DNA of 64,000 nt from Chthoniobacterales bacterium (lineage in GTDB: Bacteria; Verrucomicrobiota; Verrucomicrobiia; Chthoniobacterales; UBA6821). The notes beneath the pieces are model-generated. The model did no database searches. It was not told where the DNA came from and worked only from the letters and a program-made list of their open reading frames with translations. Shown piece after piece: positions 6,374 through 36,207 of this stretch (the first letter of the stretch is position 1; every line of letters starts with the position of its first letter). The translations under genes and the position numbers were made by a program. The stretch covers positions 631-64,630 of the forward strand of contig JBMOFC010000007.1 of assembly GCA_049314455.1 (NCBI GenBank), in the 5' to 3' direction.

Positions 6374-7431
6374 TGTTCTTGCCAGCTTAACATACTCCCA
6401 CCCTGTGAGTCTCCTATGATGACAACAATATGATGTGTGATGCCATGATAGATTCCTTTGCTATCGATGCGTCGAATATTGCCAGTGACTCCAAAATAGT
6501 TCAGTAACAGTTGTTCTTGGAGACCCGAGACTCCCATGAGTTTTGCTGCCTGGTTGATATCATTAAAAATCAAATCATCCTCTGTACCCGAGATTCCATC
6601 AGGACCAGCGCATAACTTTACAAAAGCTTCTGTCTGCTGTGGAGTTAATCCGAGCAGATCTATGAACATTTCCGGACTGCAATAATTGATGTTAATTTTT
6701 CCTGGATTGAACGTCGAAAAATAGTGTTCCCACTTAGGATTTGCCTTCACTACTGATGCGAAGCCAATGACCATCCCCATTTCACGAGCATGAACAAAGG
6801 GAGCATTGGGAGGATATCCTTCAAGGCCGTGCTTTTCATATTCAGCTTGCTTGGCTCCATGAGCAGAACGGAGCTCTGTTCGGCTTTGCCAATCATAGAG
6901 CCCGTCAATGGCAGTCTCCTGATCTTTTTGAGAAACACCCCATTTTTCAAACAGTCGCTGAAAAATAACACGATCTGATTTGGCTAACCAAGTATTCGGG
7001 TTGATAAAACCTGATTCGTTGTTGAGATGCACGGAAAAACTTTCTCCTTCTTTGTCTGTGGGATCACCTTGAGTTAAAGCAGGGTCATTCGGTCTGATAT
7101 TCGGATTCATGCCGATGGCCAGTCCGCTTAGTGCCAACTGACGTGCATGGAAAAGACGCTCTGCATGACTTTCTTCATCAAGCCAACTGCTGACACTTCC
7201 TGCAACTAAAATGATAAGTCCTGCTAAAAAAGCGATAGCCCAGAGTACCATGGGAAGTGCGAAGGCATTGCTTCGCAATGCTAGTTGTCGGTTGTCAGTT
7301 GTCAGTTGACAGCCTGAGCCATTGCTGCGCAGCTGTAGTTCGCACGTCATTCCCGCGGAGGCGGGAAGTGCAGTTCGAACGTCATTCTCGCGGAGGCGGG
7401 AATCGCAGTTGTTGCTAGCTCGTTGTGGCAT
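6370..7431 (-). CDS. gspK: Minor pseudopilin GspK-like protein
   Basis: Hydrophobic N-terminus AFALPMVLWAIAFLAGLIILVAG and a GspK-like helix-hairpin-helix region (YCSPEMFIDLLGLTPQQTEAFVKLCAGPDGISGTEDDLIFNDINQAAKLMGV). The ATG-ORF N-terminus (7279-7431) is made of repeats. An in-frame TTG at 7278 gives MRSNAFALP... (303 aa) and is the more plausible start. Confidence 0.6.
   Translation of the reverse strand: MPQRASNNCDSRLRENDVRTALPASAGMTCELQLRSNGSGCQLTTDNRQLALRSNAFALPMVLWAIAFLAGLIILVAGSVSSWLDEESHAERLFHARQLALSGLAIGMNPNIRPNDPALTQGDPTDKEGESFSVHLNNESGFINPNTWLAKSDRVIFQRLFEKWGVSQKDQETAIDGLYDWQSRTELRSAHGAKQAEYEKHGLEGYPPNAPFVHAREMGMVIGFASVVKANPKWEHYFSTFNPGKININYCSPEMFIDLLGLTPQQTEAFVKLCAGPDGISGTEDDLIFNDINQAAKLMGVSGLQEQLLLNYFGVTGNIRRIDSKGIYHGITHHIVVIIGDSQGGSMLSWQEQ
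7265..7312 (-). repeat. Pseudopilin leader module (17-nt hairpin + CAACTGACAAC repeats), copy at gspK
   Basis: Plus strand GCATTGCTTCGCAATGC + TAGTTGTCGGTTGTCAGTTGTCAGTTGACAG. The same 48-nt composite occurs at 8299-8346 and 9508-9555. Confidence 0.85.
7341..7410. repeat. Two tandem copies of the GC hairpin repeat (GTCATTCCCGCGGAGGCGGGAA type)
   Basis: CGCACGTCATTCCCGCGGAGGCGGGAAGTGCAGTT followed by CGAACGTCATTCTCGCGGAGGCGGGAATCGCAGTT. In the long gspK ORF these translate as ...DSRLRENDV...LPASAGMT... Confidence 0.85.
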
Positions 7432-7571: not shown

Positions 7572-8369
7572 CTATCTTCCCCGTAGAGGCATACCATTCA
7601 TCGGAATGTTCCTATTAGGAGGTGCGTTGCCAGAGGGATTCATGCTTGGAGGATTTGGAGTGCCAGTATTATTGTTAGGAGGAATCATTGGAACATAGCC
7701 TGATGTCCCGAGGCTGTGCTTAGTCACAGCAGGAACATAGAAAATGCTTTCAAGTGGCTCTGGAATACCTGCAACCTCCATCTCCAGACGGACTAATTGA
7801 GGTCTTGGAGAGCCACGAGGCCATTCATCTACCCATTCACCTTTATTAAAAAAACTCCAATGAGGTTTTTGAACGTTGGGAAGAAGTTTTATCCATGATG
7901 CATTTTGATAAAGATGATTCAGATCGGTGCCTTGAACATTTTTAGGAATACGAAGGATCGAGAAAGTTCTACTCCCATTACTATTTGGCTGTGCTGAAAG
8001 CGTTAAGGTTCCACCGGCAAGACTAGCAATTCCAAAGAGGCCTGTGGCATTTTCAAATGTAAGATCAGGAATCGTATTATTGCTATCATTGCTCAAGAAA
8101 ACAGCTCCATTGGCAGGTAAATTTAAAAAGGCATTGCGCGTGATTTGTAGGAATCCTGCTAACCGACGTAGTGTGAACTGTTCTACAATGGCTTCTTTTG
8201 TCGACTCGATCGCAGCCGAAGAAATAGAGTAAATGGCTCCAGCCAGTAGAACCATAATAGCCATGGCTAAGATGACTTCTAGTAACGTAAATGCAGAGCC
8301 ATCGCGTTGCGATGGCAGTTGTCGGTTGTCAGTTGTCAGTTGCCAGTTTTTGTCAGCTTGTTGTGCCAT
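7572..8369 (-). CDS. Minor pseudopilin GspJ-like protein with Pro/Asn-rich C-terminus
   Basis: Prepilin-type motif ...QRDGSA|FTLLEVILAMAIMVLLAG. At 265 aa it sits between the I-like and K-like genes. Its 26-aa leader includes the repeat-encoded QLTTDNRQL. Confidence 0.6.
   Translation of the reverse strand: MAQQADKNWQLTTDNRQLPSQRDGSAFTLLEVILAMAIMVLLAGAIYSISSAAIESTKEAIVEQFTLRRLAGFLQITRNAFLNLPANGAVFLSNDSNNTIPDLTFENATGLFGIASLAGGTLTLSAQPNSNGSRTFSILRIPKNVQGTDLNHLYQNASWIKLLPNVQKPHWSFFNKGEWVDEWPRGSPRPQLVRLEMEVAGIPEPLESIFYVPAVTKHSLGTSGYVPMIPPNNNTGTPNPPSMNPSGNAPPNRNIPMNGMPLRGR
8299..8346 (-). repeat. Pseudopilin leader module, copy at gspJ-like
   Basis: Plus strand CCATCGCGTTGCGATGG + CAGTTGTCGGTTGTCAGTTGTCAGTTGCCAG. 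Confidence 0.85.
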
Positions 8370-8475
8370 GAGAAAAGAAATATTATTTTTATGATGTAGG
8401 CTTACAACTCATAGAAAAAAGTATGGAATTTTTATTCGCTATTTTTGGCATTATTTGAACCGCTGTTAATTTAGT

Positions 8476-9108: not shown

Positions 9109-9638
9109 TCTTCGTCGTGGGTGACCTGACCTGTAATAGGGTCAAACTTGATGATGACTGGTTCTCTTCCACCTATAATGCGTAAGGTGAGTGGATCACA
9201 GATTCCTTCGCTATTGAATTGCCAGAGTTCATCAGGAAGCGGTGGGCGAAATTTTTGATCGATGAGGCGTTTAAGTTCGATTTTCCATCCTTTGGGTAAA
9301 AAGGTTGGATCATCAAGAGAGATGAAGTGTGTTTCTCCCGCCAGAATGGCTTGAGACCTAGTTTTTGTAGCTAAGTCCTCAATGGATTGTGTTACTTCTT
9401 CTGCTTGATTATTTTTCCAAGCATCAGCCATGTAGGGAGCAGCCGCAATCATCAAGATGGCAATGAGGGCGAGGGCTATAAGGACTTCTAGTAAAGTGAA
9501 ACCGTGACCATTGCTACGCAATGGCAGTTGTCGGTTGTTAGTTGATAGTTGACAGTTATTATTAGCTTGGAGTGTTGTCAGAAAAGCAGCCCTATTTTTT
9601 AATAGCACTTTAAGGAAAAATTCTGTCTTTTTAATCAC
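9105..9638 (-). CDS. Minor pseudopilin GspH-like protein
   Basis: Prepilin-type motif SNGHG|FTLLEVLIALALIAILMIAAAP. The long ATG-ORF leader (46 aa) is repeat-derived. An in-frame TTG at 9521 would give the canonical leader MRSNGHG|F (139 aa). Confidence 0.6.
   Translation of the reverse strand: MIKKTEFFLKVLLKNRAAFLTTLQANNNCQLSTNNRQLPLRSNGHGFTLLEVLIALALIAILMIAAAPYMADAWKNNQAEEVTQSIEDLATKTRSQAILAGETHFISLDDPTFLPKGWKIELKRLIDQKFRPPLPDELWQFNSEGICDPLTLRIIGGREPVIIKFDPITGQVTHDEE
9508..9555 (-). repeat. Pseudopilin leader module, copy at gspH-like
   Basis: Plus strand CCATTGCTACGCAATGG + CAGTTGTCGGTTGTTAGTTGATAGTTGACAG. Confidence 0.85.
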
Positions 9639-14918: not shown

Positions 14919-15917
14919 ATGAAAAAATTCTTCTTTCTCTTTTCATTAATCACGTTATTAGGATGTTGTTCTTCAAGCGTAGCAAACACTCAGCCTGTCT
15001 TAATTGCCGATCCGAGAGTGCTCTCGATTCCTATTTGTGACAATCAGGAGCCGCTCGTGGATCTTAGAAAAGAAGGCGGAATTGCCATTGGACCTTCCCC
15101 TGAAATTCCCAACAACACCGACTATACGTTTGTGAGAAAAAGTGTGGCTGAAAAATTACTCCAGGCACAAAAAAAATTACCACCTGGTCTTCAATTTCAA
15201 CTCTATGAAGGATATCGCAGCTTAGCTTTGCAAAAAAAACTTTTTGATACGTTCTTTGCGAAAATAAAAAAGGAACATCCTTCCTGGAGTTACAAACAAC
15301 AATTTTTAGAAACAACGCATTTGGTCTCTCCCGTTATCAATCTCGATGCGAGTCATAATATCCCGCCTCATTCTACGGGTGCAGCCATTGATGTTTATTT
15401 AGTCGATACCGCAGGAAAGTCAGTACCGATGGGCATCCATCCTAAAGATTGGATGCAGGATCTTGATGGCTCTCTCTCGTTGCCCCATTCTCAAAAAATT
15501 TCCGCTGAGGCGCGTCACTACCGAGCCATCATGAGTCGTGCTTTAAAGTCGGTAGGATTTGTTAATCTTGATACGGAATATTGGCATTGGTCTTATGGTG
15601 ATCGTTACTGGGCCTTCAAGAACCTGGATTCAAAGTCTGCTGAGACTGCGAATAAGAGTGTCGCGCCAAACGTCATCCCCGCAGAGGCGGGGATCGTCTC
15701 CTCGAGTACCTCTTGTACACTGCGGGACGGCGCGCCGTCGACTACTTGTTCTTCATCAGCCTTGAGTACTTTGAATGCAGGTTCTAAGAAAAAGAAACCA
15801 TGTGCCATTTATGGGACTACGTCTAAAAAGAGTGCGGCAGCAAATAACGCTAAGCCAGGAAAGCGTTGCGATGATTTCAAACCAAATAAGAGTTATCACA
15901 ATGATAGCTCACTTTGA
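14919..15917 (+). CDS. D-Ala-D-Ala dipeptidase (VanX/DdpX, peptidase M15D-like) lipoprotein with ~95-aa repeat-derived C-terminal tail
   Basis: Lipobox LLGC. It carries YEGYRSLALQKKLF, HSTGAAIDVYL and EYWHWSYGDRYWA, the zinc and catalytic motifs of the VanX family. The ORF continues through the element at 15629-15776. Confidence 0.75.
   Translation: MKKFFFLFSLITLLGCCSSSVANTQPVLIADPRVLSIPICDNQEPLVDLRKEGGIAIGPSPEIPNNTDYTFVRKSVAEKLLQAQKKLPPGLQFQLYEGYRSLALQKKLFDTFFAKIKKEHPSWSYKQQFLETTHLVSPVINLDASHNIPPHSTGAAIDVYLVDTAGKSVPMGIHPKDWMQDLDGSLSLPHSQKISAEARHYRAIMSRALKSVGFVNLDTEYWHWSYGDRYWAFKNLDSKSAETANKSVAPNVIPAEAGIVSSSTSCTLRDGAPSTTCSSSALSTLNAGSKKKKPCAIYGTTSKKSAAANNAKPGKRCDDFKPNKSYHNDSSL
15629..15776 (+). 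mobile_element. ~148-bp MITE-like element, in frame within the VanX-like ORF
   Basis: ...CAAAGTCTGCTGAGACTGCGA...GCGCCAAACGTCATCCCCGCAGAGGCGGGGATCGTCTCCTCGAGTACCTCTTGTACACTGCGGGACGGCGCGCC...TACTTTGAA. A homologous copy lies at 31978-32125. It translates to SKSAETANKSVAPNVIPAEAGIVSSSTSCTLRDGAPSTTCSSSALSTLNAGS. Confidence 0.8.
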
Positions 15918-29464: not shown

Positions 29465-29672
29465 AGGCTATAGGCTTGAGGCTGGAGGCTGGAGGCTGGG
29501 GAAGAGAAATAAAAAAAACATAACAACTGATGCAGAATCGTGACTACTAACGTTCCGTTGATAGCGAGAAGAAAGGGATTACGTGAAATCGTAAATAGAA
29601 GATTCAAAAAAGTGTATCTTTGTTTTCAAGTAATTTTAGTCTTTAGCCTCCAGCCTCCAGCCTCTAGCCTAT
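29465..29672. repeat. Inverted repeat with GGCTGGAGG-type arms filling the asnB/queD divergent region
   Basis: ATAGGCTTGAGGCTGGAGGCTGGAGGCT (29470-29498) pairs with TAGCCTCCAGCCTCCAGCCTCTAGCCTAT (29644-29672), about 27 of 29 complementary. The arms end 9 nt from the asnB ATG and 8 nt from the queD ATG. Confidence 0.85.
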
Positions 29673-29679
29673 CTGCACC

Positions 29680-30042
29680 ATGCACGCCTGTCTCACTAAG
29701 TCATTCACCTTTGAAGCCGCACAAACCATTCCGCATCTTGATGCAAGTCACAAATGCACTCGGATGCATGGGCATAGTTTTAAAATTGAAATTTCTGTTC
29801 AAGGGGAAGTCGATCCGCACATAGGCTGGGTCTACGATCACGCTAATATCACGAAAGCGATGACCCCATTACTGGAATTAGTTGATCATTCTTATCTCAA
29901 CGATATCCCAGGTTTAGAAAATCCAACCGTCGAAAATATGTGCTCTTGGTTCTGGAACAAACTCACGCCTCACTTGCCAGGTCTTTTTGAAATCGTGCTC
30001 CATGAGACGCCGACGGCTAGGTGTAGTTATCGGGGCAACTAG
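29680..30042 (+). CDS. queD: 6-carboxy-5,6,7,8-tetrahydropterin synthase QueD
   Basis: 120 aa with CTRMHGHSF and HETPT motifs typical of QueD/PTPS. Confidence 0.88.
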   Translation: MHACLTKSFTFEAAQTIPHLDASHKCTRMHGHSFKIEISVQGEVDPHIGWVYDHANITKAMTPLLELVDHSYLNDIPGLENPTVENMCSWFWNKLTPHLPGLFEIVLHETPTARCSYRGN

Positions 30043-30167: not shown

Positions 30168-31205
30168 TCAGTTGCGTTTCTTCATCTCAGCAATCTGATG
30201 ATCCCGCTGTTCGATGATTTGGGAGAGATCGGCTGCAAGCTTAAATTTCTCCATAACTGTTTTGTTCAGTTCAATAATCGTTTTGAGTTGTTCGGTGTTG
30301 GTTTGGTGAAGCTCTTGGTTTGTCTTCATTAAGTTGTGAACGCGGTGGTTGTTCTGTTCTTCCAGGACAAGTAGGGATTCTAAAGAAAAGAACTGTTCTT
30401 TCCATTTTTTAAAAGAGGGTTGTAGGTCTTCAAAGCTGATTCGATCAGTGGCAACGGCAAGGAGTTTTTCATAAATTTCCAAAGCAAAGGTATGGCAGAA
30501 ACTATGGTGGGGCGTATTCTCTTTGCTTCCGTGAAAATGACGTAACGAGGAGTCGATGAAATCGCAGCTATACGATTGGAGTACGTTAGGATCAAGAGGA
30601 AGTTCGAATGTCTTAGCAAGACGTTCCATCTGATACTTCGGATTTTTTAAAAGCTCGTCGTAATCGACGATATGTCGCTTCTCTCCTTGGGAATGTTCGA
30701 GGCAGCTCAGTAGGTAGGAGATCCAAATCCACAATGATTTCTCTCGATGCTGATTTTTAAATTGTTCTTGGCAGGCAGCCACATTTAAAGGATTTCTGAG
30801 TGCTATCACAAAAGAGACCTCCACTTCACGCTCCTGAAGAACTTTTTTCCAAAAAGGAAGCAAGAGTGAAAAACGAGGGTCTTTGATTCCAAAGAGAGGA
30901 TACTGCTTACTTTTTTTACATAATAATTCCGAAGCTTGTTCAAAATAACCTTTCTGACACAAGAGCATGGTCTCTTCCTCCGTCAGTGGTAGAATCCGCC
31001 GCAGACGATCGTCAAAAAAATCAAGCATTTCTAAATTAAGCTTATGAAAATCGGAATCTTCCCAATACCCTTTTTCGTTAAAAATATTGGGTGCAATGAG
31101 AGCATGTCCTAAGGAGGCTCCCATCGTTTCAAGACCTTTGGTGATAGCGCTTGTTCCACTGCGATGGACACCAATGACGATGATAACTCTATTTCTTTTC
31201 ATCAA
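30168..31205 (-). CDS. Sulfotransferase-family protein with C-terminal coiled coil (paralogue 1)
   Basis: 5'-PSB-like VIIVIGVHRSGTSAITKGL and 3'-PB-like IALRNPLNVAAC. The C-terminal ~80 aa show a heptad-like pattern (LVLEEQNNHRVHNLMKTNQELHQTNTEQLKTIIELNK...). Confidence 0.65.
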   Translation of the reverse strand: MMKRNRVIIVIGVHRSGTSAITKGLETMGASLGHALIAPNIFNEKGYWEDSDFHKLNLEMLDFFDDRLRRILPLTEEETMLLCQKGYFEQASELLCKKSKQYPLFGIKDPRFSLLLPFWKKVLQEREVEVSFVIALRNPLNVAACQEQFKNQHREKSLWIWISYLLSCLEHSQGEKRHIVDYDELLKNPKYQMERLAKTFELPLDPNVLQSYSCDFIDSSLRHFHGSKENTPHHSFCHTFALEIYEKLLAVATDRISFEDLQPSFKKWKEQFFSLESLLVLEEQNNHRVHNLMKTNQELHQTNTEQLKTIIELNKTVMEKFKLAADLSQIIEQRDHQIAEMKKRN

Positions 31206-31230
31206 TTTGAATCAGTAATCAGACGATACT

Positions 31231-32457
31231 CTAACTTATTTTTAACTCGAGGTGTTTTGCATCATGATCCTTTTGCTTTTGGAGCAGAGCATTGATTCGA
31301 ATCTCACGTTGATGGATCTCTTGGCAATAGTGAGCGATAGAATATGTTTTTTGGTTAATCTCCTTGTGAAGTTCGTGAATCGATGTGTCAAGTTGTTGAA
31401 TTGTGCTTTTCAGTTTGTGAATTGTGGCGTTGTTTTTTTCCGCTAAGACTAAAAGAGATTGAGCTTCTACATACTCTTTTTTCCATTGTTGGAGAGGTTG
31501 CTTCAATTTCTGAAAATCGATTTTATCATGGGCCACTCTGAGAAGATACGTGTACATCTCAGTTGCAAGGTTTTGATAAAAAGGAAGGGATACTGAGACC
31601 TCTTTTTTTTCATGAAAATGGCGCAGTGTGGGATCAACATAACGATGGCAATAAGATGCCAACAGGTCTTGATCTATGTTTAGCTTGAGTTTCTGAGCGA
31701 TCCTTTCCATCTGATGTTTTGGATCGTTGAGCAGCGTATCATAGTCTACCAAAAGACGCTGGTGCCCCTCGGAATGTTCGAGACAGCTTAAAAGGTGCGA
31801 TATCCAAATCCAAAACGATTTTTCCATATGCTGTTTTTGAGCGGCGGCGACACTCCAAGGGTTTCGTAAAGCGATGATAAAAGAAGCTTGGATGTTGCAT
31901 TGCTGAAACACTTTTTTCCAAAAAGGAAGTAAGATTGAAAAACGAGGATCTTTGATGCCGAGAGGCTGAGAGCCTGTTTTCAAAGTCGCTGCGACTGATG
32001 AGGGAGAAGGAGCCTCCGGCGCGCAGTCCCGGAGTGTACAAGAAGTGCTCGATGGAGCGATCCCCGTTTCCGCGAGGATGACGTTCGGCGCGACGCAGTC
32101 CATCGCAGTCGCAGTAGACTTTGAAAATAGGTTCTTATTTTTTGGAAATTTTTCGAGTAGCAACTGAGATGCTTTTGTGAGGAACCCCTCCTTGGATAGG
32201 ATCTCTACTTCTTCTTCGGTGAGGGGAATAATCTCTCGAAGATGAGCTCCAAAAAAAGAGAGTATTTCCAAATTCAGTGTGTGTAATTCTGGATCTTCCC
32301 AAAGAAGTCGTTGCTCAAAAGGATCTTGAAATGTCAGCGCAGGACCTAGTGAGATCCCCATGGTTTCAAGCCCTTTTGTTAAGACGCTTGTGCCACTGTG
32401 GGTGGTGCCAGTCACTAAGATAAGATGTTTATGACGCTTCATGTTTATCTTGCTCAC
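31231..32457 (-). CDS. Sulfotransferase-family protein with coiled coil (paralogue 2), carrying a ~50-aa repeat insertion in the catalytic domain
   Basis: LILVTGTTHSGTSVLTKGL and ALRNPWSVAAAQ. The insertion ...SKSTATAMDCVAPNVILAETGIAPSSTSCTLRDCAPEAPSPSSVAATLKTGS... is absent from the paralogues. A likely alternative start is MKRHKH at 32442. Confidence 0.65.
   Translation of the reverse strand: MSKINMKRHKHLILVTGTTHSGTSVLTKGLETMGISLGPALTFQDPFEQRLLWEDPELHTLNLEILSFFGAHLREIIPLTEEEVEILSKEGFLTKASQLLLEKFPKNKNLFSKSTATAMDCVAPNVILAETGIAPSSTSCTLRDCAPEAPSPSSVAATLKTGSQPLGIKDPRFSILLPFWKKVFQQCNIQASFIIALRNPWSVAAAQKQHMEKSFWIWISHLLSCLEHSEGHQRLLVDYDTLLNDPKHQMERIAQKLKLNIDQDLLASYCHRYVDPTLRHFHEKKEVSVSLPFYQNLATEMYTYLLRVAHDKIDFQKLKQPLQQWKKEYVEAQSLLVLAEKNNATIHKLKSTIQQLDTSIHELHKEINQKTYSIAHYCQEIHQREIRINALLQKQKDHDAKHLELKIS
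31978..32125 (-). mobile_element. ~148-bp MITE-like element, in frame within sulfotransferase paralogue 2
   Basis: Gene-sense ends are TTCAAAGTCTACTGCGACTG and CAGTCGCAGCGACTTTGAAAA (~20-nt terminal inverted repeat). The core is homologous to 15629-15776 and includes the GC hairpin. Confidence 0.8.
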
Positions 32458-33466
32458 GTTGTAGAAAAGCTAGTTGAAGATTGCGTTGATGTAGGATGTG
32501 ACAGAGACCAGCGATCGAATGCGAACTTTTATTTGTTGTCTTATTAAGCTGACTCACTGTTTTTCTACGCTCCATCATCATCTGTTCGAGTTGCTGAATC
32601 GTGAAGTTATTTTTTTCTGTTAAGACTAAAAGAGAAATAGCTTTTGAAAATTGTTGTTTCCACTTTTTTAAAGGGATGTGAGCAGCATGAAATGGCGTTT
32701 GTCCCTTTGCAATAGGAAGGAGCGTCTCATAAACTTCCATGACAAATTGCTGATGGAAGCTGCGCGTATGAGGAGATGAATTTTCTTTCCGAAAATGACA
32801 CAAAGAGGAATCAATAAAATTATGGCAATAGGTTTATAGTGCTTTGGGTTGAAGGGTGAGTTTAAAAGCCTCAGCGATCCGTTGCATTTGATGTTCCGGA
32901 TGTTTAAGAAGCTCGCTGTAATCTACTAAAATACGTTCATGCATCTCCAAATGTTCCAGGCAGCTCAAAAGATAGGAGATATACATCCAAAGAGAGAGCT
33001 CTTCATGTTCTGCGTGACAATGAGGTTTATGAGAAGCAGTAACGCTTGAGGGATCCCTTAAGGCGATGACACAGGAAAAACGAATATGACATTTCTGAAA
33101 AACTTTTTTCCAAAACGGGAGTAGCAGAGAGCACTTGGGATCTTTGAATCCAACAAGATTTGAAGTGGAGGTTTTTTCATGCAAGAGGTTGCAAGCTTGG
33201 CTAAAAAAACCTTGCTGTGATAACAACGAGATCTCTTCCTCCGTCACAAGAAGGATTAGTCGGAGGCGCTCCCCAAGAGTATCTAGTGCGCTATCGGTAA
33301 AGTTGTGAAATTCTAAATTTTCCCAATAATCTCTAAAAGGATTTGTTGGAGTGAATGAGTCACCCAAAAAAACTCCCATGGTTTCAAGCCCCTTTGTTAA
33401 AGCACTTGTCCCACTTCGATACATTCCAAGAATAAGAATGACGCGTTTGTTATTTTTCAGCATCAC
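32429..33466 (-). pseudogene. Sulfotransferase paralogue 3 interrupted by a single in-frame TAA
   Basis: ORFs 32834-33466 and 32429-32803 are in the same frame (1038 nt = 346 codons). They read ...LQPKAL*TYCHNFIDSSLCHF..., where paralogue 4 has ...LQPKALQTYCHDFIDTMLCHF (CAA to TAA). Confidence 0.8.
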
Positions 33467-33485
33467 GTTTTGCGTGCTCTTGCGT

Positions 33486-33742
33486 TAGCCCGGATATTTC
33501 ATGCTGATCTATTGTGAAAGCCGGGAAGCCTTATGGATGCTGCGTTGGGCTCATGTTTTGACTTGGGTAACACCAGTGCTCGGGAGAGCCTGGGGCAGAC
33601 TGCCTTGAGGCAGCCAGAAGGGCGAGCCGAGCAGGTGCGAGCGAGTCAATATGTGCGCTACAGTCCGGTGCCAAAGTGCTCGTCTGCTTTATCCCATCAG
33701 CCTTCGCAGCTTCCTCATCACGATCAGCATGAAATGTCTGAG
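33486..33742. mobile_element. ~257-bp MITE-like element supplying the C-terminal ~70 aa of sulfotransferase paralogue 4
   Basis: Terminal inverted repeats are TAGCCCGGATATTTCATGCTGATC (33486-33509) and GATCAGCATGAAATGTCTGAG (33722-33742). Its right part is homologous to 6230-6300. The paralogues end where the element begins. Confidence 0.7.
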
Positions 33743-34757
33743 ATAGAAAACCAAGTTGGATATTCCGTTGATGTAATGTTTGGCAAAGGTTAGCAATCGA
33801 GCGTGTATTTTTATTTTTTATTTTATTGAATTCAAAAAGAGTGTGTTGACGGTCGAGGATCGTTCTTTGCAGCTCTTCCATGGTGAAGTCATTTTTTTCT
33901 GCTAGGACTAAAAGAGAGGTAACTTTTGAAAATTGTTGTTTCCATTTTTTTAAAGGGATGTGAGCAGCATGAAATGTTGTTTGGCCCTTTGCGATGGGGA
34001 GAAGCGTCTCATAAATTTCCATGGCACATTGCTGGTAAGAATTATTTGTGGAGAAATATTTTTTCTCTTCCTGAAAATGGCAAAGCATAGTGTCGATAAA
34101 ATCATGACAGTAGGTCTGTAGTGCTTTGGGTTGAAGCGTGAGTTCAAAAGCCTCAGCGATCCGTTGCATTTGATATTCCGGATGTTTCAGAAGCTCGTTG
34201 TAATCCACTAAAATGCGGTTGTATCCCTGGGTCTGTTCCAGACAACTGATAAGGTACGATATCCAATTCCAAAAAAGCTTTTCCAGATGTTCTGTCCTGA
34301 AAAGTTTGTGACGATTCGTTGTGGAGGCAGCAACGCTCCAGGGATCTCTTAATGAGATGACAAAAGATGCTTGTAGGCCGCATGCAGTAAAAACTTTTTT
34401 CCAAAAAGGGAGAAAAAGTGAAAACCTAGGGTCCTTGATACCGAAAACGTTGGAAGAAGAAGTCTTTTTCAACAAGAGTTCTGAGGCTGTGGTTAAAAAA
34501 TTTTGCTGACACAACAACGTCACCTCTTCTTCCGTCAGCGCGAGTACAAGACGCCGCCGCCCTTCCAGCGCATACAAGAGGGTTGTATTGAATTCCTGAA
34601 TGTCTACATCTTCATAGTCGCCCTTTGGATTATAAGAATTCGCTGGAATGAAGGAATTGCCTAAGCAGATGCCCATCGTTTCAAGACCTTTCGTTAAAGC
34701 GCTTGTGCCACTTCTAGGAACTCCAAGAACGAGGATCACTCTTTTATGGTTTTCCAT
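33531..34757 (-). CDS. Sulfotransferase-family protein with coiled coil (paralogue 4) and repeat-derived C-terminal extension
   Basis: VILVLGVPRSGTSALTKGL and SLRDPWSVAAST. The tail ...HADRDEEAAKADGIKQTSTLAPDCS... is encoded by the element at 33486-33742. Confidence 0.65.
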   Translation of the reverse strand: MENHKRVILVLGVPRSGTSALTKGLETMGICLGNSFIPANSYNPKGDYEDVDIQEFNTTLLYALEGRRRLVLALTEEEVTLLCQQNFLTTASELLLKKTSSSNVFGIKDPRFSLFLPFWKKVFTACGLQASFVISLRDPWSVAASTTNRHKLFRTEHLEKLFWNWISYLISCLEQTQGYNRILVDYNELLKHPEYQMQRIAEAFELTLQPKALQTYCHDFIDTMLCHFQEEKKYFSTNNSYQQCAMEIYETLLPIAKGQTTFHAAHIPLKKWKQQFSKVTSLLVLAEKNDFTMEELQRTILDRQHTLFEFNKIKNKNTRSIANLCQTLHQRNIQLGFLSQTFHADRDEEAAKADGIKQTSTLAPDCSAHIDSLAPARLALLAASRQSAPGSPEHWCYPSQNMSPTQHP

Positions 34758-34761
34758 GAAA

Positions 34762-36207
34762 TCACGTCATCTTCGAGGGAATAACCCATTTATCGAATTC
34801 TTCACTGCTTAGAAATCCTAAGGAGAGTGCAGATTCTTTAAGTGTGATGTTTTCACGATGGGCTTTCTTGGCTATTTGAGCGGCTTTGTCGTAGCCAAGA
34901 TGTGGGTTGAGCGCCGTGACTAGCATGAGCGAATTATTGACATGCTCTTCAATTTTTTGTTGGTTGGCCTCGATGCCTTCAATGCAGTGCGTGGTAAAGG
35001 AACGACAGGCATCACTCAAGAGGCGTACAGAGTGCAGAAAATTATGAATGATGACAGGTTTAAAAACATTGAGTTCAAAATTTCCAAGAGAGGCAGCCAC
35101 ACCAATGGCAGTATCATTTCCCATGACTTGGATAGAGACCATGGTGACTGCCTCGCATTGTGTTGGATTCACTTTTCCGGGCATGATCGAAGAGCCAGGT
35201 TCATTTTCTGGGAGCTTTAATTCTCCGAGCCCACAACGAGGTCCTGAAGCGAGCCAACGAAGATCATTAGCTATTTTCATGAGTGAGGCTGCCAGCGATT
35301 TGAGAGCGCCGCTTGCAAAAACAAATTCCCCATGACTTGCCAATGCGGCAAATTTATTTTCAGCAGAGGTGAAATGGATCTTAGTAAATTCTGTTAAGTA
35401 GTGTGCAACGCGCTCGCCAAAGCCGATAGGAGCATTGAGGCCTGTGCCGACAGCAGTTCCTCCGATAGCAAGCGCTGATAATCCGTGGAGAGACGTTTGG
35501 ATCTGGGTGAGGTCAGCATCCAGCATCGCAACATAACCAGAAAATTCCTGACCTAATGTTAAAGGAGTGGCATCTTGCAAATGAGTGCGTCCAATTTTAA
35601 CAATACTAGAAAACGTTTCTGCTTTTTGCTGCAGTGCGGCACGCAATTTTTGAATCGTGGGTAACAAACGTTCATGAATCATCATCACCGCAGCCAAATT
35701 CATCGCGGTGGGGAAGGTGTCATTGGAGGATTGTGATTTGTTAACATCATCATTCGGATGAATCGGTGTTTTAGAGCCGAGGTGGCCACCTGCTAATTCA
35801 ATTGCACGATTGGCAATGACTTCATTAGCGTTCATATTGCTTTGCGTGCCACTTCCTGTTTGCCAGATGCGCAGTGGAAAGTGGTCATTCAATTTACCTG
35901 AAATCACCTCATCAGCAGCTTGCACAATGAGAGCCGTTTTTTCTGGAGATAATTGTTTGAAATCACAGTTAGCGTGAGCACACGCTTTCTTCAGAAGTCC
36001 AAGCGCCTTGATCAGTTCCGGTGGTTTGAGATCGTTGCCAATATTGAAATGAATCAACGATCGCGCTGTCTGAGCTCCATAGTAACGATGATGCGGCACC
36101 ATGATGCTCCCCATGCTGTCGGATTCTTCTCGATGTGTGGTAGAGGAGGTAGGCTCCTGTTTGTTGGGATGGGAAAGCATAGACTGTTCTAAAAAAGAGT
36201 GGTTCAA
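34762..36207 (-). CDS. fumC: Class II fumarate hydratase FumC
   Basis: [11 protein letters not shown] signature and YGAQTARS near the N-terminus. The true start may be the internal ATG at 36177. Confidence 0.93.

Follow-up and report, generated by a model that had tools for sequence, protein, structure and literature searches.

What do four adjacent sulfotransferase-like genes do in a Chthoniobacterales bacterium in which their neighbours are housekeeping genes, and are they recent duplicates of one another? The window analysed here (64,000 nucleotides) contains four minus-strand open reading frames, P1 to P4, arranged head-to-tail at 30168-34757, each encoding a PAPS-type sulfotransferase domain followed by one C-terminal helix. 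P2, P3 and P4 are 47% identical to P1 over the full length, and a fifth, short-tailed paralogue is encoded on another contig (C6:42425-43312). The family tree contains three orthogroups (types A, B and C, each with at least 95% bootstrap), with P1 in type A, P2 in type B, and P3 and P4 in type C. The coordinates and strand given in a preliminary description of this DNA were borne out, as was its account of P1 as intact, the gene being uninterrupted and without an inserted element. From queD to fumC, the locus comprises:

29680..30042, plus strand: queD (6-carboxytetrahydropterin synthase family), conserved by synteny as the right-hand neighbour of the array
30168..31205, minus strand: P1, type A with stalk, 345 aa, intact, convergent with the adjoining queD
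31231..32457, minus strand: P2, type B with stalk, 408 aa (Pfam, tree, residue table, AlphaFold)
31969..32135, no strand assigned: MITE1, 167 nt with 19-nt terminal inverted repeats
32429..33466, minus strand: P3, second type C copy, read as a pseudogene (TAA at 32834-32836)
32595..32754, minus strand: putative conversion tract 2 of P3, ~87% identical to P4 33877-34036
32811..32938, minus strand: putative conversion tract 1 of P3, 88% identical to P4 34093-34220, with the TAA inside
33450..33488, minus strand: putative remnant of the native P4 3' end (..QEHAKRDAEK, stop; frame-0 translation), overlapping the P3 start
33489..33740, no strand assigned: MITE2, 252 nt, from the alignment of six full-length copies
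33531..34757, minus strand: P4, type C with stalk, 408 aa (Pfam, tree, residue table)
34762..36207, minus strand: fumC (class II fumarase), an open reading frame that immediately precedes the array in the same orientation

The gap of 4 nt between fumC and the P4 start, on a shared strand, makes fumC a probable operon partner of the array; co-transcription is probable on spacing only, and a promoter and terminator scan of the array gave signal at chance level. On the other flank, the L007 orthologue of queD is assigned to PTPS by Pfam.

The top Pfam match of all four copies is Sulfotransfer_3 (PF13469, gathering cut-off 27) or Sulfotransfer_1 (PF00685, gathering cut-off 22), at or slightly over the gathering score, as the preliminary description had expected. 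On PF13469, P1 scores 28.6, the N-terminal part of P3 35.2 and P4 39.2 bits, while P2 scores 21.4 there but 22.8 on PF00685. Sulfotransferases are the sole matches in a PDB sequence search, and they make up the best 50 of 50 Foldseek matches in the PDB to the AlphaFold model of P1 (pLDDT 92.8), with probability 1.00. The best of these are TPST1/2, followed by the sulfotransferase domains of CurM and olefin synthase; at TM-scores of 0.4-0.5 and identities of 14-17%, the fold is uninformative on substrate. Profile matches and the predicted model show the N-terminal domains to have the family and fold of PAPS sulfotransferases, as had been claimed, and P1-P4 are predicted cytoplasmic PAPS-dependent enzymes with the Sulfotransfer_3 (TPST/NodH-like) fold. 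Identity as another P-loop NTPase or kinase, for which there is one weak AAA_18 match to the N-terminal part of P3 (E = 0.098), is refuted to near certainty by the Pfam, PDB sequence and fold matches: the searches that could have placed the domain in a non-sulfotransferase P-loop family returned sulfotransferases.

Motifs common to the array are GxxRSGTS (HSGTS in P2), IKDPRFS, LLPFWKK and LR(N/D)P. Across 58 relatives, the Arg-Ser-Gly-Thr-Ser of the PSB loop, Glu49/Asp50, Lys108 and the 3'-phosphate-binding Arg137 are conserved. The GxxRSGTS motif earlier ascribed to every copy is present in P1, P3 and P4 but not in P2, whose HSGTS lacks the Lys/Arg of the 5'-PSB loop that has a catalytic role (PMC11625862); this Arg is replaced by His in four of five type B orthologues. 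The 3'-PB Arg (R137) is invariant, and the Ser following it is kept in P3 and P4, whereas P1 has Cys, as does type A throughout, and P2 has Ala. Given the changes at the 3'-PB Ser in P1 and P2 and at the PSB Arg in P2, some copies may be weak or inactive.

The age of the array can be read from its relatives. The order ruvC-cc249-fumC-[C-B-A]-queD-asnB is kept in four related lake Chthoniobacterales genomes (G001, G005, G010 and G003), and a fumC-sulfotransferase adjacency occurs in two further metagenome contigs, their fumarase being identified by Pfam (Lyase_1/FumaraseC_C). Type A is the best-conserved orthogroup (P1 orthologues are 65-73% identical), dN being ~0.2 for type A, 0.32 for type B and 0.43 for type C, and pN is well below pS, which indicates purifying selection on the triad genes. 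By phylogeny and synteny, the checks proposed at the outset, the array is an ancient conserved C-B-A triad, in an order found in at least four relatives, with one extra type C copy, and not a set of four recent duplicates.

The extra copy is P3, in which the TAA falls at residue 211 and Asn replaces Asp50, a residue invariant in 58 family members; judged from sequence, P3 is a pseudogene, and recently so. The in-frame stop was placed correctly in the preliminary description, but the codon opposite it in P4 is CAG, not CAA. P4 keeps its key residues except for W48Y. The two copies are 87-88% identical in two tracts compared with 59% elsewhere, and none of 5000 codon-wise permutations reached the observed maximum of tract identity, which supports the exchange of two short gene-conversion tracts between P3 and P4. 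The pair-wide dS is ~1.45, and outside the tracts synonymous sites have diverged almost to saturation, so that, of the duplication or conversion suggested earlier, conversion stands while recent duplication is unsupported.

The 50-residue insertion noticed in P2 is real and corresponds to MITE1, which is read in frame and adds about 56-62 residues; element and flanks together account for P2 residues ~104-165. This element gives 53-70 blastn matches in the 2.0 Mb genome; of 13 near-full-length copies, 10 are embedded in reading frames that stay open for 260-1063 codons, and 8 of 11 copies have the orientation and frame seen in P2. Being short, bounded by terminal inverted repeats, dispersed in many copies and read through within genes, MITE1 has the characteristics of an in-frame (RPE-like) MITE. 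In the AlphaFold model of P2, the encoded segment (pLDDT 41-48) forms a loop between helix 92-103 and strand 166-169 and the sulfotransferase fold is kept, and the P2 fold is thus predicted to tolerate MITE1 in a surface loop. The repeat-derived tail reported for P4 was confirmed as MITE2 (98-164 blastn matches genome-wide), with terminal inverted repeats (..ATTTCATGCTGATC / GATCAGCATGAAAT..). The last 64 codons of P4 come from this element, which appears to have taken the place of the last ~10 native codons, the native end being inferred from the downstream frame-0 translation.

An old triad, a broken extra copy and two copies with MITEs together clearly exemplify turnover within a gene family whose enzymes are uncharacterised, although the kind of system is not new. 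In the ancestral state, three diverged paralogues in the order C-B-A would have stood between fumC and queD in the lake Chthoniobacterales lineage. Here type C would have doubled, leaving a catalytically plausible P4 and a newly formed pseudogene, P3, trading conversion tracts with it; P2 would have gained MITE1 in frame and P4 lost its native end to MITE2, with P1 intact and the most constrained. The differing states of decay and remodelling described earlier are therefore seen in P3 (pseudogene) and in P2 and P4 (MITE-remodelled), and the pattern reaches across the genus.

A helical linker joins the catalytic domain to the long terminal helix, which is predicted as one helix of 69 residues in P1 (276-344) and 93 residues in P2 (AlphaFold, pLDDT >90). 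The heptad-rich tail of ~80-100 residues described previously is hence retained as a predicted helix with amended lengths; a crude heptad score of the tails is weak. The helix is probably a coiled-coil oligomerisation stalk; in analysis of the tail sequences its ends are charged and a membrane- or polymerase-binding segment is not evident. With P1 as a single query, 301 metagenome proteins were matched, among which the stalked architecture is common. A literature search for a characterised sulfotransferase with a coiled coil found none, in agreement with the initial impression that the architecture matches no characterised enzyme.

The window lacks PAPS-synthesis genes, as already observed, though they are present elsewhere in the genome: CysC scores above the NCBIfam cut-off, a CysN-like protein has CysN as its best match, and a CysD-like open reading frame is also encoded. 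NIR_SIR gave no match in the 97%-complete genome and PAPS_reduct gave one match only. With CysD, CysN and CysC encoded and sulfite reductase not found, the PAPS of this genome probably serves sulfation, and the three proteins would supply it to the array enzymes.

For the acceptor, the clue comes from distant relatives, since no glycan genes adjoin the array itself, as the preliminary description had remarked. In three of four long contigs examined, homologues at 30-38% identity directly adjoin wzm/wzt and glycosyltransferase genes, and one such contig also encodes APS kinase. In G011, of the same genus, the gene of a tail-less family member comes after that of a second Wzt with a carbohydrate-binding domain. 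Fusions to GT2 or WbsX also occur in the family, and the source label of some members reads 'O-antigen biosynthesis protein'. The present genome has a wzm/wzt(Wzt_C)/rml/RgpF locus (wzm/wzt at C2:54611-57529; Wzt_C 132 bits), and a strong Wzt_C match occurs in 9 of 11 sulfotransferase-positive compared with 1-2 of 14 negative genomes of family f1, which are not phylogenetically independent. The association of distant members with wzm/wzt exporters favours surface-glycan sulfation, and an exported surface glycan is our favoured acceptor. With moderate confidence, we read the locus as an old, remodelled sulfotransferase array acting on a sugar polymer; this would probably be a surface glycan, lipid-linked and exported by the Wzm/Wzt ABC transporter after sulfation; types A, B and C would provide different positional specificities or a stalk-mediated complex. 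Against this stand the housekeeping neighbours of the array, the low identity (27-38%) of the relatives that supply the context, protein-tyrosine sulfotransferases as best fold matches, and the substitutions at the 3'-PB serine (P1 Cys, P2 Ala) and PSB arginine (P2 His).

A non-glycan acceptor, such as a lipid or isoprenoid, a small metabolite or a protein tyrosine (TPST/RaxST-like), would accord with the ranking of TPST1/2 and then CurM and olefin-synthase domains among the fold matches, with family copies amid housekeeping genes elsewhere in the genus, and with an overlap, in one relative, between the type A gene and the stop of a squalene/phytoene synthase gene. We regard it as unlikely: TM-scores and identities are too low for the substrate to be read from the fold, the squalene-synthase neighbour occurs in one rearranged contig only, and RaxX/RaxAB-like, polyketide or lipid genes are not conserved beside the array, whose conserved neighbourhood contains no peptide or type I secretion genes; the more distant relatives, moreover, lie repeatedly inside glycan loci. 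A more specific glycan role, in which the enzymes act as WbdD-like terminators and rulers, placing a sulfate cap at the non-reducing end for recognition by the Wzt domain while the stalk sets chain length, is doubtful. The order of catalytic domain and long helix is that of WbdD, a 35%-identical homologue of 465 aa stands exactly where wbdD would be, behind wzm-wzt(Wzt_C), and is the sole terminator candidate of its locus, the first Wzt of G011 is paired with a methyltransferase-GT fusion and the second with a sulfotransferase of the P1-P4 family, and the genome itself encodes a Wzt with a strong Wzt_C match. However, the array (contig C7, fumC-queD) is unlinked to wzm/wzt on contig C2, where a methyltransferase and a methyltransferase-GT1-RgpF protein of 1244 aa, the type of protein that usually acts as terminator, are already encoded; their presence also counts against the broader glycan reading. 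For one glycan, three to five paralogous terminators would be superfluous, the stalks, at 69-93 residues, are short and have charged ends and no evident membrane- or polymerase-binding segment, and the Wzt-adjacent member in G011 has no stalk; a chain-terminator role at the array locus is not supported.

The graded divergence of the three types could also mean that only P1 works and that types B and C are decaying relics, open by chance, of a family leaving a streamlined genome. The His at the PSB position in most type B genes, the loss of several invariant residues from type C of G005 and G003 and type B of G010, the P3 stop codon and the MITEs in P2 and P4 would fit such decay. At least five species nevertheless have types B and C full-length and in an unchanged order despite saturated synonymous sites, and open frames with pN well below pS are hard to reconcile with neutrality; with W48Y as the sole key-residue change in P4 and the predicted P2 fold intact around its insert, this explanation is improbable. 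Since types B and C repeatedly lose catalytic residues yet stay full-length across species, they might instead be non-catalytic partners, the triad forming one hetero-oligomeric machine through its C-terminal helices, with A as catalyst and B and C as pseudoenzyme stalk partners that position or regulate it; we think this very unlikely.

Very few bacterial polysaccharide sulfotransferases have, to our knowledge, been characterised, and the array offers a compact natural series (intact A, altered B, eroding C and a fresh pseudogene) for studying the roles of stalk and paralogues. The apparent retention of sulfate activation for sulfation alone suggests that sulfated surface material matters to these abundant lake bacteria, and the locus illustrates clearly how RPE-like in-frame MITEs, together with gene conversion, reshape proteins in a streamlined free-living genome. 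Current ideas are not overturned; the value lies in the groundwork.

Among known systems, NodH is placed in PF13469 by Pfam on account of its RxG PSB motif (PMC11625862). With NodH of Sinorhizobium and with TPST1/2 the array has in common the fold, a strand-loop-helix PSB loop with Arg-x-Gly-Thr/Ser, and a 3'-phosphate-binding Arg on the next strand-turn-helix. It differs from PF13469 members in being only 14-17% identical to them, in its own motifs (YWED, IKDPRFS, LLPFWKK), in the added helical linker and terminal helix of 69-93 residues, and in the replacement of the usual 3'-PB serine by Cys (type A) or Ala (P2). WbdD of E. coli O9a and Klebsiella O3 is a kinase-methyltransferase chain terminator with a coiled-coil molecular ruler (PMC3482155). 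Both are cytoplasmic modifying enzymes with a long helical stalk, localisation and stalk being predicted for the array, and distant members of the array's family stand in the wbdD position after wzm-wzt(Wzt_C). The chemistry, however, is that of sulfate in the array and of phosphate and methyl in WbdD, the array stalk is much shorter and its C-terminus has no visible membrane- or polymerase-binding segment, and the array lies outside the wzm/wzt locus with three to four paralogues. For MITE1, the comparison is with the Rickettsia palindromic elements (RPE), reportedly described by Ogata et al. in 2000, and the Coxiella QMITEs, which we take to be comparable in-frame MITEs. Like RPE, MITE1 is short, has terminal inverted repeats and dozens of copies mostly within long open frames, is usually read in one orientation and frame to give a similar peptide of ~50 residues, and in P2 occupies a surface loop, whereas its sequence family differs and its host is a free-living freshwater Verrucomicrobium.

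Four head-to-tail sulfotransferase genes, P1 to P4, lie on the minus strand between queD and fumC, each encoding a catalytic domain followed by a C-terminal stalk.

Sulfotransferase genes of the array, from the ORF listing
P1: 30168-31205, minus strand, 345 aa
P2: 31231-32457, minus strand, 408 aa
P3: 32429-33466, minus strand, broken by a single TAA at 32834-32836
P4: 33531-34757, minus strand, 408 aa

The array follows fumC (34762-36207) after a 4-nt gap, and its other end is convergent with queD (29680-30042). P4 and P3 are 64 nt apart, P3 and P2 overlap, and P2 and P1 are 25 nt apart. Full-length alignment of the four proteins (47% identity to P1) gives ∼100 invariant columns, with motifs including GxxRSGTS, IKDPRFS, LLPFWKK and LR(N/D)P. 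The ORFs and alignment bear out the preliminary description of the array overall, but the P4 codon facing the TAA of P3 is CAG, not CAA. A promoter and terminator scan gave signal at shuffle level and is uninformative on transcription units. The neighboring genes in the window encode HflX, MiaA, an RRM protein, AsnB, QueD, FumC, RuvC and LipB, and offer no clue to the acceptor. The asnB-queD intergenic region contains an inverted repeat of AGGCTGG/CCAGCCT heptamer runs (29479-29527 and 29622-29670) around ∼94 nt. Elsewhere in the window, a 58-nt repeat ending GTTGTCGGTTGTCAGTTGTCAGTTG occurs in three copies ∼1.0-1.2 kb apart (7255-7312, 8289-8346 and 9498-9555), with copies sitting inside a larger 131-nt repeat pair (8260-8390 and 9469-9599).

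P1-P4 belong to the PAPS sulfotransferase superfamily. The top Pfam matches of every copy are Sulfotransfer_3 and Sulfotransfer_1, at or just above the gathering score, while an NCBIfam profile search of each paralogue gave no meaningful match, and a PDB sequence search yielded nothing beyond weak matches to the CurM sulfotransferase domain and TPST1. The AlphaFold model of P1 (58 relatives in the alignment; pLDDT 92.8, pTM 0.85) comprises an alpha/beta domain (residues 6-216), two linker helices (236-273) and a single unbroken helix (276-344). The best 50 Foldseek matches of this model in the PDB are all PAPS sulfotransferases (TPST1/2 at the top, then the CurM and olefin-synthase sulfotransferase domains and cytosolic SULTs), which together with the Pfam matches excludes assignment to a different P-loop family, the case that the preliminary description had named as refuting it. 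Residues with little or no variation across the 58 aligned sequences include R15, S16, G17, T18 and S19 of the 5'-phosphosulfate-binding (PSB) loop, W48, E49, D50 and K108, and R137 and P139 involved in 3'-phosphate binding (PB). The roles of the PSB Lys/Arg and PB-helix Ser are described in a review (PMC11625862). The proteins thus show the fold, profile match, PSB loop and PB Arg of the superfamily, apart from deviations in P2 and at the PB Ser. The tail is a predicted long helix and a probable coiled coil, a cautious wording adopted because a crude heptad score does not clearly set it apart from the remaining protein. A literature search turned up no characterized coiled-coil sulfotransferase.

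The array comprises a long-established triad and a single additional copy. The genome assembly (2.0 Mb, 86 contigs, 97% complete) was compared with its relatives, MAGs from lake water that bear the labels Spartobacteria, Chthoniobacterales or 'Xiphi'. P1 has 2-6 matches per genome in 11 of the 13 genomes of the genus (the window's own counted), and matches in none of the 12 genomes of the sister genus. A maximum-likelihood tree resolves well-supported orthogroups A, B and C, plus groups D and E. Orthogroup A contains P1, its counterparts in the related genomes G001, G005, G010 and G003, and one ENA contig (end branches 0.14-0.31); orthogroup B contains P2 and four orthologues; and orthogroup C contains both P3 and P4 with four orthologues (end branches up to 0.79). 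Group D is short-tailed and takes in the genome's fifth copy, on contig C6, and group E occurs in the other clade of the genus.

G010 retains the order ruvC, 249-aa protein, fumC, [C, B, A], queD, asnB, RRM, miaA, as do G001, G005 and G003 as far as contig ends permit; sulfotransferases directly follow fumC in two more metagenome contigs. The group E clade has queD directly upstream of fumC and no sulfotransferase there. A simple fumC-queD 'empty site' was sought in sulfotransferase-free relatives and not found; the placement of queD upstream of fumC on the same strand indicates that the region is rearranged there. In a further related locus (L007 10001-11029, ENA contig NODE_223) only a type A gene is present at the site, and the neighbor whose stop it overlaps at its start is a squalene/phytoene synthase gene rather than a type B gene, so the left flank is rearranged. 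Among orthologues, synonymous sites are saturated and pN is 0.16-0.35. Saturation of dS makes orthologue dN/dS unreliable, and selection was therefore read only from pN versus pS and from the dN ranking, in which type A (∼0.2) is lower than B (∼0.32) and B lower than C (∼0.43).

The copies differ in their state of preservation. P1 retains all key residues, with the usual PB-helix Ser replaced by Cys as throughout type A, and its tail is conserved to the same degree as the catalytic domain (mean identity among type A orthologues 67% versus 70%). In P2 the PSB Arg is replaced by His, as in four of five type B genes. W48Y is the sole departure of P4 from the family consensus among key residues, and P3 has an Asn at the invariant D50 in addition to its stop codon. 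Several invariant residues are also lost, from frames that are still full-length, in the type C genes of G005 and G003 and the type B gene of G010. The 'different states of decay' described earlier thus characterize the array as a whole across this lineage.

P3 and P4 are 68% identical in nucleotide sequence overall, with two tracts of much higher identity: P3 32811-32938 versus P4 34093-34220 (88%, with the TAA inside) and P3 32595-32754 versus P4 33877-34036 (∼87%). Outside these tracts identity is 59%. Over those columns P1-P4 and P2-P4 reach only 47-70% identity, which shows that the tracts are more than conserved regions, and none of 5000 codon-wise permutations reached the observed 120-nt maximum of 90%. 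Of the two origins proposed earlier for this similarity, gene conversion is upheld by the tracts and permutations, while recent duplication is ruled out by the 59% identity outside them and a pair-wide dS of ∼1.45. The location of the nonsense codon inside a converted tract suggests that it probably arose after conversion.

Two of the genes have been remodelled by MITEs. The P2 insertion, correctly attributed to an element in the preliminary description, is a 167-nt MITE (MITE1, 31969-32135) with 19-nt terminal inverted repeats (AGAACCTnTnTTCAAAGTC and its complement). The AlphaFold model of P2 retains the fold (pLDDT >90) and a tail forming a 93-residue helix, and places the element-encoded residues ∼104-165 (pLDDT 41-48) in an unstructured loop that joins helix 92-103 to strand 166-169. 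Of 13 near-full-length MITE1 copies, 10 are located within stop-free frames of 260-1063 codons, and 8 of 11 examined share the orientation and frame of P2 and encode a similar peptide. In these respects (in-frame copies, shared orientation and frame, similar peptide) MITE1 behaves like a Rickettsia palindromic element (RPE), and at the sequence level the P2 insert has the features of an in-frame, RPE-like MITE. Copies are found in the window (31969-32135 and 15619-15785) and on contigs C31, C14, C19, C3, C1 and C62 of the genome; the element adds a similar ∼50-residue peptide (..CVAPNVIPAEAGI.SSSTS.TLRDCAP..) to unrelated proteins of up to 1063 codons. The P4 tail is likewise repeat-derived, as first described, and comes from a 252-nt MITE (MITE2, 33489-33740; 98 matches) into which the frame continues for 64 codons. 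Past MITE2 the P4 frame reads ..QEHAKRDAEK and then a stop, overlapping the P3 start. This resembles the native P4 end, in which case P4 would have lost only ∼10 native residues.

The genome encodes a CysC adenylyl-sulfate kinase (245 bits versus a cut-off of 163) on contig C47 (C47:4-2311), where a CysN-like GTPase gene directly precedes it at the contig start. A CysD-like ORF near the end of contig C27 (C27:23359-24210), which we take to be CysD from its motifs, is the sole PAPS_reduct-family match. A NIR_SIR (sulfite/nitrite reductase) profile search of this 97% complete assembly gave no match, and with no second PAPS_reduct-family gene found, sulfate activation appears to serve sulfation rather than assimilation. 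Besides the five genes of the array family, the genome encodes one unrelated sulfotransferase domain, on contig C35, which rules out the array family as the only users of PAPS. The C35 protein (C35:14709-17540) is a 943-aa fusion with a C-terminal Sulfotransfer_3 domain by profile search and, by eye, an N-terminal alkaline-phosphatase/phosphodiesterase-like region and TPR-like repeats.

Distant homologues place the family beside Wzm/Wzt ABC glycan exporters. P0090, with 35% identity across 99% of P1, comes directly after wzm-wzt, with the carbohydrate-binding domain Wzt_C, and ahead of DegT, acetyltransferase and three GT2 genes. P0115 also comes after wzm-wzt, in a locus that contains WbsX, methyltransferases, MBOATs and an APS kinase, and P0119 precedes wzm-wzt(Wzt_C) and adjoins another sulfotransferase and GT2 and GT9 genes; P0107 has no wzm/wzt-type glycan context. 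G011, another genome of the genus, has the arrangement rmlA-rmlC-wzm-wzt1-(methyltransferase-GT2-GT2)-wzt2-(331-aa sulfotransferase)-(WbsX-GT2-GT1), which resembles two adjacent exporter/modifier pairs. This sulfotransferase lacks the stalk and is 27% identical to P1 over the whole catalytic domain and linker. Both Wzt ATPases of the locus (L050, G011:C55:46000-64000) carry Wzt_C domains. Other family matches carry fusions to GT2 or WbsX domains or are labelled 'O-antigen biosynthesis protein' in the source, and in Aeromonas salmonicida a sulfotransferase-domain ORF of unassigned role follows wzt (PMC4483657).

The only Wzm/Wzt(Wzt_C) locus in the window's genome (C2:51928-71767) encodes, by Pfam, Wzm, Wzt, a 228-aa methyltransferase, a 1244-aa methyltransferase-GT1-RgpF protein, a 788-aa GT1-RgpF protein, a GT2 and an amine-oxidase-family flavoprotein, and looks like a methyl-capped rhamnan-type pathway. 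The rml genes (rmlBAC), two large membrane proteins and two epimerases were recognized there by eye only. Given this locus and the wzm/wzt context of the distant relatives, we favor, at roughly even chances, sulfation by the array enzymes of a cytoplasmically assembled, ABC-exported glycan. A narrower role as a sulfate cap and ruler, modelled on the glycan chain terminator WbdD with its coiled-coil ruler, is improbable: the array is not linked to wzm/wzt, the export locus comes with methyltransferase-type candidates of its own, three to five terminators would not be needed, and the stalks are short.

The locus thus represents an uncharacterized family of stalked sulfotransferases, in which a conserved triad is subject to pseudogenization, gene conversion and MITE remodelling, and the questions it raises are testable by ordinary biochemistry. 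The array proteins resemble WbdD in layout only, as the genomic context that defines WbdD is absent at the array.
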